DNA of 64,000 nucleotides from Patella caerulea (lineage: Eukaryota): contig JAZGQO010000002.1 in assembly GCA_036850965.1 (NCBI GenBank), positions 26,932,901 to 26,996,900 of the forward strand, in the 5' to 3' direction. Of this stretch, positions 14,690 through 61,468 are shown in pieces (positions within the stretch are counted from its first letter, which is position 1; each line of letters starts with the position of its first letter). The position numbers were made by a program, and so were the translations under genes. A model generated the notes under the pieces. That model saw only the letters and a list, made by a program, of their open reading frames with translations, was not told where the DNA came from and did not search any database.

Positions 14690-16819
14690 ACGTCCACATT
14701 CCTACTTTGATTGATATGGTACTTTGTCAAGAAGGCTAGGCGTTTGGTTTGTTTAGCGTTGAGGGTCGTGCACCAACATTAATAGTTGCCGTCCTTAGAG
14801 TATAAGGAATAACTATACCAAGATAATCCATTCAGAATTGTGCCTTCCTAACACAAAAGGCAAAAAGTGGGCGTGGCTCTGACCCTGAGGGTCGGGACAT
14901 TCATCAAAATCAATAGTGGACGCCCTCAGGCTATAAGGAATACATAAACCAAGTACCAAGCTGATTCATTCAGAATTGCGGCCTGTAAACGACAAACACA
15001 AAAATTGGTCGTATCTTGCCTGTGTGAGTCGGGACATGCAGTTGACGTCCTTAGGCTATATGGAATACATATCTCAAGTTTTAAGACGTCAAGACGATCC
15101 ATTAAGAATCGTGGCCTGCAGACAACACACATAGACACGAAGTAAAAATGGGCATGGCTCTGCCCCTGGGGGTTAGGAAATCACCAAAACAATAGGGGTC
15201 ATCTTTAGGGTATAAGGAATAGGTTTGTAAAGTTTTAAAAGTATCTGTTAAGAATTGCATCCTGTAGGCGAACACAAGACACAAAAGCATTGGGCGTGGC
15301 TCTGTCCCAGGGGGTCCGTCATGCACCAAAAATAATAGTGGTCAGCCTTAGGGTATAAGGAATAAGTATAAAAAAAGTTTTCAAGACGATCGATTAAGAA
15401 TTGTGGGCTGTAGGTGACACACAGACAGACAACAAAAAAAAAATGGGCATGGCACTGTCCCTTGGGGTTGGACATGCACCAAAAACAATAGGGATCATCC
15501 TTAAGGTAAAAAGAATAAGTATTCAAAGTTTCAAGATGATACATTAAGAAATGCAGCCTGTAGACGACAGACAAACAAATACACGAAATGGGTGTTGCTG
15601 TCCCATGGGGGTCGGGCATGCACCCAAAACAAAAGGGGTCATCCTTAGGGTATAAGGAATAAGTATTTTAAGTTTCAAGATGACCGATTAAGAATTGTGG
15701 CCTGTAGGCGACATACAAAAAGAAAATGGGCGTGACTCTGCCCCTGGGGGTTGGGCATGCACCCCAAATGATAGAAATGTTCCTTGGGGTACAAAGAATA
15801 ATCATTCAAAGTTTCAAGATGATACGTTAAGAAATGTGGCTTGTAGACGACAAACAAATAAATACAAGGAATGGGCGTGGCTCTGCCATTGGGGGTCGGG
15901 CATGCACCAAAAAACAATACGGATCATCCTTAGGGTAATTATACAAAGTTTTAAGAAAATACAGTTAGAATTGCGGCTTCTAGGCGACACACAAAAAGAA
16001 AATGGGCGTGGCTCTGCCCCTGGGGGGTTGGGCATGCACCCCAAATGATAGGGATCATCCTTAGAGTATAAAGAGTAAGTAATCAAAGTTTTAAAGAAAA
16101 TCCAATAAGAATTGCGGCCTGTAGGCGACACAAAGACACACGATAAGAAAATGGGTGTGGCTCTGCCCCAGGGGGTTGGGCATGCACCCCAAATGATAGG
16201 GATGTTCCTTAGGGTACAAAGAATGTGTATGCTAAGTTTCAAAATTATAAGTTAAGAAATGTGGCCTGTAGACGACAAACAAATACATACTAGAAATGGG
16301 CGTGGCTCTGTCCCTGGGGGTCGGGCATGCACCAAAAACAATAGAGATCTTCCTTAGGGTATAAGGAATACGTATACCAAGTTTGAAGAAAATCCAGAAA
16401 GAATTGCGCCCTGTAGGCGACACAAAGACACACGAAAAGAAAATGGGCGTGGCTCTGCCCCTGGGGGTGGGGCATACACCCCAAACGATAGGGATGTTCC
16501 TTAGGGTACAAAGAATGTGTATGCTAAGTTTCAAAATTATAAGTTAAGAAATGTGGCCTGTAGACGACAAACAAACAAATACTAGAAATGGGCGTGGCTC
16601 GGCCCCTGGGGGTCGGGCATGCCCCAAAAACAATAGGGATCTTTCTTGGGGTATAAGGAATAAGTATGCCAAGTTTGAAGAAAATCCATGAAGAATTGCG
16701 CCCTGTAGGCGAACCACAGACACACACACACACACACAGACACACACACACACACACAAACACACAGACAGGGGCGACGGCATAATACGTTCACATTATG
16801 AATGTGGACGTATAAAAAA
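14690..16819 (+). mobile_element. Satellite-carrying non-autonomous element (HINE/pearl-like). About 14 tandem copies of a ~145-bp monomer, then (CA)n at 16716-16766, then the conserved hairpin terminus.
   Basis: GGGCGTGGCTCTG recurs at ~145-bp period. Terminus CAGGGGCGACGGCATAATACGTTCACATTATGAATGTGGACGTATAAAAAA is shared with elements at 30150, 39610, 60710 and 61410. Confidence 0.7.
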
Positions 16820-18119
16820 CGAACGACCTATCAATCCATGTAAAATTTTGATTAAAATGTTTTCGATATTACAATAAATTTACGATTCATAGATTTCTTT
16901 GTTGTTCGTTTTTTCTACTTGCTAGTAAAAAAAAAAATCCATTATTTAAAAAAGAATCCATTGTAACAGAAACCGTCTGACAAAGTATAAAATAATTGAT
17001 AGTATTTGTCTTAATAGGATAAAGTTAGTGAGTGGTATTAAAGATCACCCATACATTCTACATGTACATTTTTATAATGGATTAAATACAAAAAGAATGA
17101 CGTCACAGCCAGACTTGAATTCAATTAGAATATTTACAGACTACTTATTATAAGGCAATCTTGATTGATTCAATTAAATTATACTCGTGTTAAGTGATTA
17201 ATGAAAATGCACTCTTTTACTTATTTTGCTTTTAACTACTCTATTCAACTATTGAAGGCAATTTGTTTTGTTTATTTTATATTCGGCAGAGAATTACTGT
17301 TATTATCATAACCAATTCTTAGTTTACACCCAATGTCACAAATCTATCCGATAACTAAAAGGAAGTCCATCCCTTACTTGAAAGAAAACACCTATAATCA
17401 ATGTTTAATCTCAAGGCTATATTTCAGCTAAATGCTTCCAAGAGATTTCATAATTCTGTTTATCAATATTTTGCGCCTAGCAACCCTACATGTATGCCGA
17501 CATCTCATGGCAAGACTTTGACTTAGGAGACAATGGTGTCTAGTAAATAACTAAGAAATTACATGAAATGGAATTTAACATCCGTCCTACTGTTATGCTC
17601 CAACTAATAAGGTCATCGTGTAAATGAGTGCTTCCCCCGCACCCAAGGAAATTTTGGAAAATAGACTGCACCTGAAAATGATATCGGTGTATAATGAGGA
17701 TTGATAATTTGATATGAACATTATAAAAATTTAAAGGACGGAACACGACTTAACATACCTAAAATAATTTATGAGAAAAACGATAAGTTTGGAATTTTGA
17801 AGATCATTACGCTGTTTTGTGAGCCTAACCAATCTCACTCGGGTCCCTCACCAATTATATAATGAGCGCCAATGATCTTGTCGTGGCAGGGGCGCCCCCC
17901 CCCCCCCTTGCTCAGCTACATAAAAAATAATAATGCCTGGCATCCATGAAATTACATCACAAAGTGATCCTACATCAGTATAAAAATGATTTCTCTGTTT
18001 AAAAAGCTCAATTTGTATGTATGCCTATGTAATTTAGAGACGATGATGGCAGATTTCTGTGACAGAAACCGGGCAAACCCCCTCCTGCAAAAATTCCTGG
18101 ATCCGCCCCTGCGTGGGCG

Positions 18120-60753: not shown

Positions 60754-61468
60754 GGTCATTTTTCGTACAATCAGGGGCCATAATTCAGGAAGTTACGATC
60801 CAATGGGCGCAAATATCGAAAGGAACCAAGATCTTTGGGTTATAAACATACATGTCAAGTTTCATCAAAATCGGTTCAAAATTGTGACCTCGATAGGGTC
60901 CACAACCTTGATATAACATATTTTCACACTATTCGCGTACAAATGGCGGCCATTTTGTTTGTTAATTTTGGTCCAATTTTCACGAAATTTGAACTCAACC
61001 CTCATTACCATGTAACGGTGATATAATCAAACGTTTTTTAAAATCGGATAATAATTTTGACCTCCAGAGGGACCACAAGCTAAAAAGGGCGATTTTTCGG
61101 ACAATCAGGGGCCATAATTCAGGAAGTTACGATCCGATGGGCGCAAATATCGAAAGGAACCAAGATTTTGGGGTTATAAACATGCATGTCAAGTTTCATC
61201 ACAATCGATTCAAAATTGTGACCTCTATAGGGTCCACAAGCTAAAAACATGATATTTCGTACAATCAGGGGCCATAATCCATGAAGTTCTTATCCGATAC
61301 ATGCCAATATCGAAAGGAACCGAGATCTTATGGGGATAAACCTATATTTCAAGTTTCGTCAAAATCGGATAAGAATTGTGACCTGTAGAGAGTCCACAAA
61401 CAAATTGTGGACGGACGGACAGGGGCGACGACATAATACGTCCACATGAAAATGTGGGCGTATAAAAA
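60754..61468 (+). mobile_element. Second, shorter HINE-like element of the same 325-bp family, directly abutting the first (2 monomers plus terminus).
   Basis: Identical terminus at 61420-61468. Confidence 0.65.

Follow-up and report, generated by a model that had tools for sequence, protein, structure and literature searches.

The genome of the limpet Patella caerulea contains a stretch of 64,000 nucleotides (contig JAZGQO010000002.1 of assembly GCA_036850965.1, positions 26,932,901 to 26,996,900 of the forward strand; hereafter the window) in which short satellite-like arrays recur, and the question raised by this locus was whether these arrays belong to mobile elements with defined ends and, if so, to elements of which kind. 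The original prediction, made from the sequence letters, had proposed at least eight satellite-bearing elements that share one architecture (tandem array, palindrome, microsatellite and hairpin terminus) and had likened them to the HINE/pearl elements of bivalves, which are associated with Helentrons. This observation was real but over-generalised, and is regarded here as partly confirmed. Eight elements of one family were indeed found, but the proposed list and its boundaries were partly wrong, as it included a nested pair, an element apparently of another family and truncated copies, and missed one copy. Very probably, the eight elements constitute one family of non-autonomous Helentron-type rolling-circle transposons (HINEs) in Patella.

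The element ends were inventoried with nhmmer profiles made from the hairpin-end (5') flank, LF, and the opposite-end (3') flank, RF, which were run across the whole window. The LF profile detected exactly seven 5' ends (E values from 1e-18 to 9e-12), six of them on one strand, ending at 16819, 30197, 39655, 60753, 61468 and 62674, and the seventh on the opposite strand, ending at 48186. The RF profile detected six 3' ends, four at E values of approximately 1e-10 to 2e-11 and two weaker ones in the elements named E9 (4.7e-05) and E1 (1.1e-03). The remaining profile matches were weak (E >= 0.19), aside from cross-matches within the same elements due to self-complementarity or to the inverted repeats in subterminal position (subTIRs). 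The eight elements (E1-E4, E9, A, B and R) comprised five complete copies, one without the hairpin end and two without the other end; counted together with the element E5, they occupied approximately 9 kb, corresponding to 14% of the window. Short-word BLAST of the termini against the window found part of the hairpin inverted beyond the arrays at 14687-14701, 58605-58620 and 59062-59077, and located an extra opposite-strand terminus at 48186-48214, which belongs to the copy at 48186-48683 that was absent from the earlier inventory. The exact 24-nt stem-loop ACGTCCACATGAAAATGTGGGCGT, predicted as a common terminus, was present in the window only twice, at 60723 and 61438 (chance expectation zero), whereas a homologous end was found in seven copies (nhmmer E <= 1e-11). 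Diverged yet clearly homologous full termini ended at 16819, 30197, 60753 and 61468, and their shared form was GGGGCRACGRCA..ATACGnnCACAT-loop-ATGTGGRCGTATAAAAA. The generalisation that all elements end in a microsatellite and this hairpin failed in three places, as the copy given as 25720-26700 stopped at 26674 without either, that at 39240-39648 had a hairpin lacking GCGTAT and no palindrome, and that at 40020-40575 had a different tail. Tandem Repeats Finder, with which arrays and microsatellites were called, reproduced the proposed periods of 145 bp (15102-16728), 150 bp (28964-30119) and 325 bp (325/160 at 59386-60656 and 61040-61399) as well as the (CA)n, (GACA)9 and (GGAC)n microsatellites.

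In the canonical orientation, which is the minus strand of the window for seven of the eight copies (14663-62674; not statistically remarkable for eight, two-sided p ~0.07), an element began with T(5-6) directly followed by a 12-bp subTIR ATACGCCCACAT, 4-6 nt, an inner inverted repeat (IR) ATGTGGACGTAT and a conserved spacer TATGTCGTCGCCCC. The spacer was followed by a T(GTCC)n microsatellite, of which B had ten units, (GTCC)10, and A two, (GTCC)2. E3 had a degenerate GTCC, and in other copies the unit was mutated, E1 having (GT)n interspersed with GTCT and E5 having (GTCT)9. The microsatellite started approximately 48 nt from the 5' end in A, B, E1 and E3, and approximately 51 nt in E5. At the junction of microsatellite and array, a palindrome was formed by GTCCACAA paired with TTGTGGAC of the first monomer, and the interior consisted of 2-13 monomers of 145-160 bp and then a variable spacer. 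The 3' end was composed of the subTIR ATGTGGGCGTAT, CCTGC, a palindrome with a 5-6-bp stem and the terminal CCTATCTTT. The palindrome, located 9 nt from the end, was CTGGCAGTGCCAG in A and B, GTTGCCTGGCAAC in E3 and E2, and GTGGTCCAC in a related element of Lottia gigantea. Complementarity of the subTIRs ATACGCCCACAT and ATGTGGGCGTAT reached 12/12 positions in A and B; E1 had 15/15 and E3 11/12. In A and B, the 3' subTIR started at a distance of 39 nt from the end. The ends of the elements accordingly read T(n)ATACG... and ...CTATCTTT, and all complete copies started with T5-6 and finished in T3-6. The arrays had one orientation relative to LF and RF in 8/8 copies. Coding capacity was absent; among the open reading frames (ORFs) of at least 120 aa that were listed, the only ones in elements lay wholly within the arrays of E1 and E3, and no homologue was found with the ORF through the 150-bp array as a protein query.

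This layout largely agrees with the structural definition of HINEs (PMC4067079, PMC7492417), so that the predicted class stood, and the order of modules was that of pearl and DTC84 (PMC3879986). HINEs are characterised by 12-15-bp subTIRs, of which that at the 5' side is separated from its end by a few nt and that at the 3' side lies approximately 38-60 nt from the 3' end (PMC4067079), an inner IR 1-22 nt downstream of the 5' subTIR (DINE-1/Cg_HINE type), and a 5-10-bp palindrome 8-35 nt from the 3' end. As the layout matches that of published HINE/DINE-1 elements (PMC4067079, PMC7492417), the hairpin end is the 5' end by Helentron convention, not the closing terminus that had been assumed; the opposite side, ...ATGTGGGCGTAT-palindrome-CCTATCTTT, is the true 3' end. 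That the microsatellite varies while its position is fixed had been singled out as notable; this is a defining and already described feature of HINE/DINE-1 elements.

A record of mobility was found in what had been listed as two neighbours, 58560-60753 and 60754-61468. This region contained two successive 3' ends (58578 and ~59035-59037) and then two successive 5' ends (60753 and 61468), and joining 58960-59036 to 60754-60830 rebuilt an intact 160-bp monomer. The junction after removal of the inner element B was gctaaaaa|ggtcatttttcg (beginning with ggtc), as compared to gctaaaaagggcgatttttcg and gctaaaaagggc in neighbouring monomers. The rebuilt monomer therefore identified B as a precise insertion into the T-run (GACC-TTTTT-AGC on the canonical strand) of a monomer of the outer element A, and no duplication beyond the A/T run was observed. 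The outer element A (58578-61468, minus strand) was complete except for the interruption, with a perfect 12/12-bp subTIR pair. Its RF (58578-58676) contained the palindrome at 58587-58599 and the 3' subTIR at 58605-58616, and the array comprised a monomer part (58911-59036) and, beyond B, 160-bp monomers (60754-61400). On its 5' side were the junction palindrome (61392-61412), (GGAC)2, the IR (61436-61447), the 5' subTIR (61452-61463) and the T-run (61464-61468). The nested element B (59037-60753, minus strand) was also complete, with an RF at 59037-59133 (palindrome 59044-59056, 3' subTIR 59062-59073), an array made of a 325-bp higher-order repeat (59386-60496) and 160-bp monomers to 60657, the junction palindrome (60649-60669), (GGAC)10 at 60666-60705, the IR (60721-60732), the 5' subTIR (60737-60748) and the T-run (60749-60753). 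A and B were identical in LF (50/50 nt) and 97% identical in RF over 99 nt, and these near-identical ends suggest recent activity. A tRNA-like, SINE-looking (short interspersed nuclear element) segment of approximately 160 bp was located between the 3' flank and the array of A (58745-58905) and was absent from the otherwise near-identical B.

The other copies showed different degrees of completeness and decay. E1 (14663-16819, minus strand) was a complete HINE, the left boundary of which is uncertain by a few bases. It contained the perfect 15/15-bp 3' subTIR (TATACGTCCACATTC on the plus strand, 14687-14701), an array at ~14769-16714 of approximately 13 monomers of 145 bp with a 292-bp dimer periodicity, a (CA)n/(GACA) microsatellite (16715-16770), the inner IR (16785-16796), the 5' subTIR (16802-16813) and the T-run (A6 on the plus strand, 16814-16819). 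E3 (28744-30197, minus strand), also complete, had an RF at 28744-28806 with the palindrome GTTGCCAGGCAAC and an 11/12 subTIR, an array of 7.7 copies of 150 bp (28964-30119), the junction palindrome (30109-30132), degenerate (GGAC)n (30131-30150), the IR (30165-30176), the 5' subTIR (30181-30192) and the T-run (30193-30197). E2 (25727-26674, minus strand) was truncated at the 5' side. It retained the RF (AAAGATGAG-TTGCCAGGCAA palindrome-subTIR; profile E = 6.5e-11) and monomers of the 150-bp type, stopped at ...CAATTGTG without microsatellite and hairpin, and was split at 26230-26520 by a SINE-like insertion of approximately 290 bp. The identity between E2 and E3 was 77.9% over 529 bp with unrelated flanks. 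For both pairs, E2/E3 and A/B, similarity stopped at the LF and RF ends and no flanking similarity was shared, and the 78% identity of E2 and E3 ending at the element boundary points to independent, older insertions.

Among the remaining copies, E4 (39238-39653, minus strand) was truncated at the 3' side and lacked an RF (LF profile E = 1.5e-14). It consisted of approximately 2.5 monomers of the 160-bp type, 76-77% identical to the arrays of A and B, with a single GGAC and no palindrome, and the outer arm of its LF (39610-39653) lacked GCGTAT, so that ATGTGG ran directly into AAAAA. E9 (48186-48683, plus strand), the copy in the opposite orientation, was complete and degenerate (LF E = 1.1e-12, RF E = 4.7e-05), with T5 at 48186-48190, a decayed subTIR and IR, a microsatellite remnant TGTCCATCTGTC, approximately two monomers of the 150-bp type, the 3' subTIR GTGAGTGTATGT and CCTATCTTT at 48675-48683; its 3' palindrome was deleted. 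R (~62575-62674, minus strand) was a remnant (LF profile E = 8.9e-12) consisting of a decayed LF (IR 62644-62655, degenerate outer arm 62659-62670) and the last ~45 bp of a monomer, with no microsatellite. E5 (40020-40575, minus strand; left boundary provisional) contained three monomers of approximately 146 bp, (GACA)9 at 40489-40524 and a tail AACCCATTTCAATAGTTGCCCAACTTTCTTCGAAAGACGGGGGACAAAAAA with a weak 5-bp hairpin. Its membership in the main family was rejected, as it matched neither the LF nor the RF profile, its monomers were dissimilar and its hairpin was no better than those of shuffled sequences. No opposite end was found for E5, nor any inverted partner of its terminus beyond a 9-bp match to its own monomers, and it is tentatively assigned to a second HINE-like family.

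The arrays had been described as carrying different monomers. Consensus sequences made for each array were compared by Smith-Waterman scores against dinucleotide shuffles, and homology in the same-strand orientation was found among the 145-, 150- and 160-bp monomers (z = 11.7, 14.9 and 30.1; z = 12-30 overall). They are therefore diverged versions of one ancestral unit, to which the E5 monomer was unrelated (z <= 1.6). A near-palindrome GACCTCTAGAGGGTC was present within every monomer, a feature resembling the palindrome in each core repeat of DTC84. Homology to the oyster satellite Cg170/CL1 was also considered, as short shared strings (CAAGTTTCA and GGGGCCATAAT) were noticed by eye; comparison of four consensuses on both strands with the CL1 array from the supplement of PMC7492417 gave z values of -1.1 to 1.9, and this homology was rejected. 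The host is a patellogastropod limpet (Gastropoda, Patellogastropoda) and not a bivalve.

Folding of the hairpins and palindromes as single-stranded DNA, with z scores against shuffles, supported a conserved structure at the 5' end. The LF hairpin had energies of -7.6 to -8.2 kcal/mol (z = -3.9 to -4.6), including -7.6 kcal/mol (z = -4.3) in E1, where no 3' palindrome was recognisable, and -8.2 kcal/mol (z = -4.6) in E3. Over six distinct copies, the Lottia one included, 87.5% of cells were paired, in contrast to 15-57% in shifted registers, and an internal mismatch recurred at one position across copies. Covariation was tried as a further support; one compensatory pair (C-G to T-A, in E9) was found, which was indistinguishable from shuffles. 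The palindrome proposed between array and microsatellite was real in three elements (E3, A and B), with -12.1 kcal/mol (z = -4.7) at 30109-30132 in E3 and -7.4 kcal/mol for the sequence shared by A and B, and was lacking in the copy at 39240-39648. It is composed of the last microsatellite unit and ACAA, pairing with the TTGTGGAC box of the first monomer.

Explanations other than rolling-circle transposition have to be weighed against these structures. The elements could be MITEs (miniature inverted-repeat transposable elements) moved in a cut-and-paste manner by a DDE transposase acting on the inverted repeats, with a TT/AA target-site duplication. Pearl and DTC84 were first classified as such MITEs, and DTC84 is so described in PMC3879986. 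Inverted repeats near both ends, T/A runs that bound every insertion and could mask a 2-bp TT duplication, and a Tc1/mariner transposase gene in the window (36220-37200) are compatible with this explanation. The ends were, however, strongly asymmetric: at one end the repeat is ~5 nt from the terminus, at the other ~27-39 nt, and the hairpin and microsatellite are confined to one side, the opposite side having a palindrome of its own. The reconstructed empty site in A showed neither a duplication past the T-run nor an evident TA duplication of the type made by Tc1/mariner, and the same architecture was reassigned to Helentrons once mites, mosquitoes and flies had yielded autonomous partners (PMC4067079). 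We thus consider a MITE origin improbable, while it is the least improbable of the three alternatives.

Even less credit is given to the explanation that these are ordinary short satellite arrays spread by segmental duplication, the end sequences being merely part of the duplicated block. Arrays of related monomers do recur within 50 kb with 7/8 in the same orientation, and a 109-bp satellite of Lottia is related to the monomers and has no recognisable element ends. Against this, similarity between copies ended exactly at LF and RF, the flanks were unrelated, one copy was located precisely within another, and the same two ends bounded arrays of diverged monomers as well as an element in a different limpet family. 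When read on the plus strand, the elements could also be taken for SINE-like retroposons with a short A-tail (TATAAAAA), since six of the seven hairpin-end copies finish in A4-A6 on this strand and tRNA-derived SINE-like repeats are abundant in the window. The A-run was nevertheless short and varied little, as expected for a part of the element rather than for a poly(A) tail, no flanking direct repeats were found at the one reconstructed site, and neither Rfam nor ARAGORN found a tRNA-like or RNA polymerase III head. Subterminal inverted repeats and a hairpin have, moreover, no role in retroposition, and a retroposon origin is judged the most remote of the three.

Several observations weigh against the assignment to HINEs and temper our confidence in it. 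No Rep/helicase was detected in the ten window ORFs of at least 120 aa outside the elements that were scanned against Pfam (six in the host region and four in a Polinton), a scan that left out shorter or fragmented ORFs, and the link between the limpet elements and a Helentron protein is a putative one drawn from structure. The 3' palindromes were short, folded alone no better than shuffles, and were absent or unrecognisable in E1 and E9. The covariation of the hairpin lacked statistical support with six sequences. The empty site was reconstructed at a single place within a T-run, and because this sole site lies in a T-run, a target duplication limited to TT or T may have occurred. In the case of E5, only the general layout was present, with no identified 3' end. 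Rfam at gathering thresholds and ARAGORN found no RNA in the window, two metagenome scans for the hairpin end gave zero matches and then one chance match in a bacterial contig, and a literature search for the end sequences as text strings returned unrelated primer matches only.

With the elements read as HINEs, their propagation may be envisaged by analogy with what is established for Helitrons and Helentrons. An autonomous Helentron located elsewhere would supply a Rep/helicase(-endonuclease), and this protein would recognise the subTIR/hairpin ends, nick at the 5' end and unwind toward the 3' palindrome, which would act as the stop signal, and the copied strand would be inserted between two Ts. 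The internal array and the microsatellite would travel as cargo, and their lengths could change by slippage or unequal exchange, aided by the palindrome in each monomer. Such a process would give rise to copy-specific arrays, higher-order repeats and satellite-like DNA scattered through the genome.

Relatives of the elements were found in a sample of approximately 104 kb from Lottia gigantea, which was reached through homologues of the capsid protein of a Polinton in the window. One Lottia locus (L003) contained a complete related element at ~21650-22375, the 12-bp subTIR of which was identical to that of Patella and the LF of which was 81% identical over 94 nt (E = 2e-17). Its 3' end was AAAGATAGTGGACCACAGCCATATACGCCCAC and its 5' end ...GACGGACGGGGGTGTCGACAATATACTTCCACATAGAGAGATGTGGGCGTATAAA (both as reverse complement), and the 3' terminus was again CTATCTTT. 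The second copy at the same locus (~19600-20415) had 171-bp and ~145-bp monomers and a 5' end without the outer arm, so that the sample held two copies in total. The Lottia monomers were homologous to the Patella 160-bp monomer (z = 11-20.5). As both ends and monomers are homologous, flanks and cargo have been conserved together across two limpet superfamilies. The outer hairpin arm was cut short and ran straight into the A/T run both in Patella E4 (39643-39653) and in the second Lottia copy (20368-20415), which reflects either a parallel deletion or a shared variant terminus. Another Lottia locus (L005) contained arrays of a 109-bp satellite at 17293-18512, 20424-21259 and 22751-23440 within a repeat unit of approximately 3.1 kb. 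Significant similarity linked their monomers to the 160-bp HINE monomer of Patella (z = 7) and to that of E5 (z = 4.5), and no HINE ends accompanied the arrays; to judge from this similarity, the satellite may possibly be derived from HINE core repeats. The Lottia sample yielded no autonomous Helentron gene (Rep/helicase), and no LF or RF match was found in a single 21.7-kb Haliotis locus, which is too little sequence for any conclusion.

The resemblance to elements known from other animals was judged chiefly by layout. The Cg_HINE elements of oyster (PMC7492417) share with the limpet elements a 5' subTIR (11-12 bp), a complementary IR 1-12 nt away, a GTCC/GTCY microsatellite, satellite-like repeats of 140-180 bp in fixed orientation and a 3' subTIR followed by a palindrome (recognised in the limpet in A, B, E2 and E3), as well as T-rich/TT insertion without target duplication, truncated and nested copies, and related families that differ in monomers and in diagnostic end changes. 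They differ in that the limpet host is a gastropod and the monomers show no significant similarity to CL1/Cg170 (z < 2), and the ends are likened by their layout. The Helentron assignment, the GTCC/GTCY microsatellites, the TT target without duplication and the truncated and nested copies had already been described for Cg_HINE (PMC7492417) and in later reviews. Pearl of Crassostrea virginica and DTC84 of Donax trunculus (PMC3879986) consist of an L flank, core repeats, (ACGG)n and an R flank, an order that reads as the plus strand of the window, with (GGAC)n being the same repeat as (ACGG)n. They also agree in an inverted motif with a subterminal position at one end and a near-terminal one at the opposite end, the A/T boundaries, the palindrome near the end of each core repeat and the special junction to the microsatellite. 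In contrast to the limpet elements, these are bivalve families. Their description was as MITEs making an AA duplication, and they were subsequently regarded as relatives of Helentrons; they too are likened here by layout. In Drosophila, mites, mosquitoes and Lepidoptera, DINE-1/HINE elements (Thomas et al. 2014, PMC4067079) have subTIRs of 12-15 bp and, beside the 5' one, an inner IR. They also contain a microsatellite, which is (GTCY)n in Lepidoptera, and optionally tandem repeats in the centre; a short palindrome lies close to the 3' end, and the target is TT, with 2-5 Ts at the boundaries. For these elements autonomous Helentrons with matching ends were identified, whereas none was found for the limpet, and no sequence similarity is claimed. 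Canonical Helitrons resemble the limpet elements in that non-coding derivatives are common, a 3' hairpin serves as the stop signal, no target duplication is made and tandem repeats are captured and spread. Assignment to this group (5'-TC...CTRR-3', A/T target, no inverted repeats) was rejected for the limpet elements, which have the ends T(n)ATACG.../...CTATCTTT, subTIRs and T-run insertion. The local density was approximately one element per 6 kb in a single window chosen for looking unusual, as compared to an average of approximately one array per 38-78 kb in oyster, derived from the counts in PMC7492417.

The window contained other mobile elements and genes. A near-intact Polinton/Maverick occupied 1-13900, with ORFs at 332-3673, 5826-6524, 8679-9578, 11341-12708 and 12611-13216. 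Its genes encode a type-B DNA polymerase, a packaging-ATPase-like protein, an integrase with a chromodomain and a major capsid protein, and the fifth ORF (12611-13216), at the position of the protease, had no Pfam match. The capsid protein was 99% identical to annotated Patella caerulea proteins, an identity by which the host was recognised as a limpet, and the next matches (61-69%) were two unnamed ENA-derived proteins and Lottia gigantea. The SINE-like repeat that splits E2 (26230-26520, minus strand, ~290 bp) has a tRNA-like head with box A/B-like motifs recognised by eye. Further copies were located at 4572-4773, 24683-24837, 30533-30620, 45326-45408, 46309-46370 and 55901-56086, including a 95%-identical one inside the Polinton. 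This repeat, which matched nothing in Rfam or ARAGORN, may be the Nin-SINE reported for Lottia and Patella (PMC11121367). The Tc1/mariner transposase ORF (36220-37200, minus strand) appeared intact, encoding 326 aa with HTH_Tnp_Tc3_2 and DDE_3 domains. An inverted repeat pair of 366 bp (18489-18854 and 21650-22012), 94% identical and approximately 2.8 kb apart, may represent the terminal inverted repeats of a DNA transposon. Other dispersed repeats (71-94% identity) unrelated to the HINEs were found at 26854-27169, 41741-42000 and 43954-44285, as were the repeat pairs 31724-32557/33674-34506 and 50119-50535/54179-54571. Host exons were located among the elements at 46734-47378 and 55184-57717, corresponding to a protein with a voltage-sensor/ion-transport domain and to a 3-beta-hydroxysteroid dehydrogenase-like gene, the exon of which had its best matches (52-57%) in other gastropods. 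The host exons between the elements therefore place these HINEs in gene-bearing euchromatin.

As far as is documented, short satellite-like arrays spread in oyster and clam genomes mainly by way of satellite-carrying derivatives of Helentrons, and the element type is already well described in oysters, clams and flies. The finding therefore adds a host lineage and a family to an established kind of element, rather than defining another kind, and leaves the understanding of how HINEs work unchanged. In the literature searched, no account of such elements in a gastropod, Lottia or Patella was found, the terms Helentron and gastropod co-occurring only in a survey of bivalve transposons; the one paper on a Patella satellite deals with a SINE-derived one and calls gastropod satellite DNA neglected. 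The LF and RF profiles can be used for annotating limpet assemblies, in which such elements would otherwise be unclassified tandem repeats. It is conceivable, though rather doubtful, that the flanks and the satellite-like monomers have been one travelling unit since before the split of Patellidae and Lottiidae, as suggested by the identical 12-bp subTIR, the 5' end with its 81% identity, the shared 3' terminus CTATCTTT and the homologous monomers; the same pattern would result if the elements had passed horizontally from one limpet lineage to another. If flanks and monomers were indeed one unit, the cargo repeats would be under constraint and serve a function in the transposon, for example as a site where the Rep/helicase binds or pauses, and would not be randomly captured satellite DNA. 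They would then be to gastropods what the BIV160-type repeats, which are very old, are to bivalves. The presence of these elements in limpets extends the phenomenon across molluscan classes, in a system that is shared with Lottia and that appears to have been recently active, with two copies 97-100% identical at their ends and one inserted in the other.

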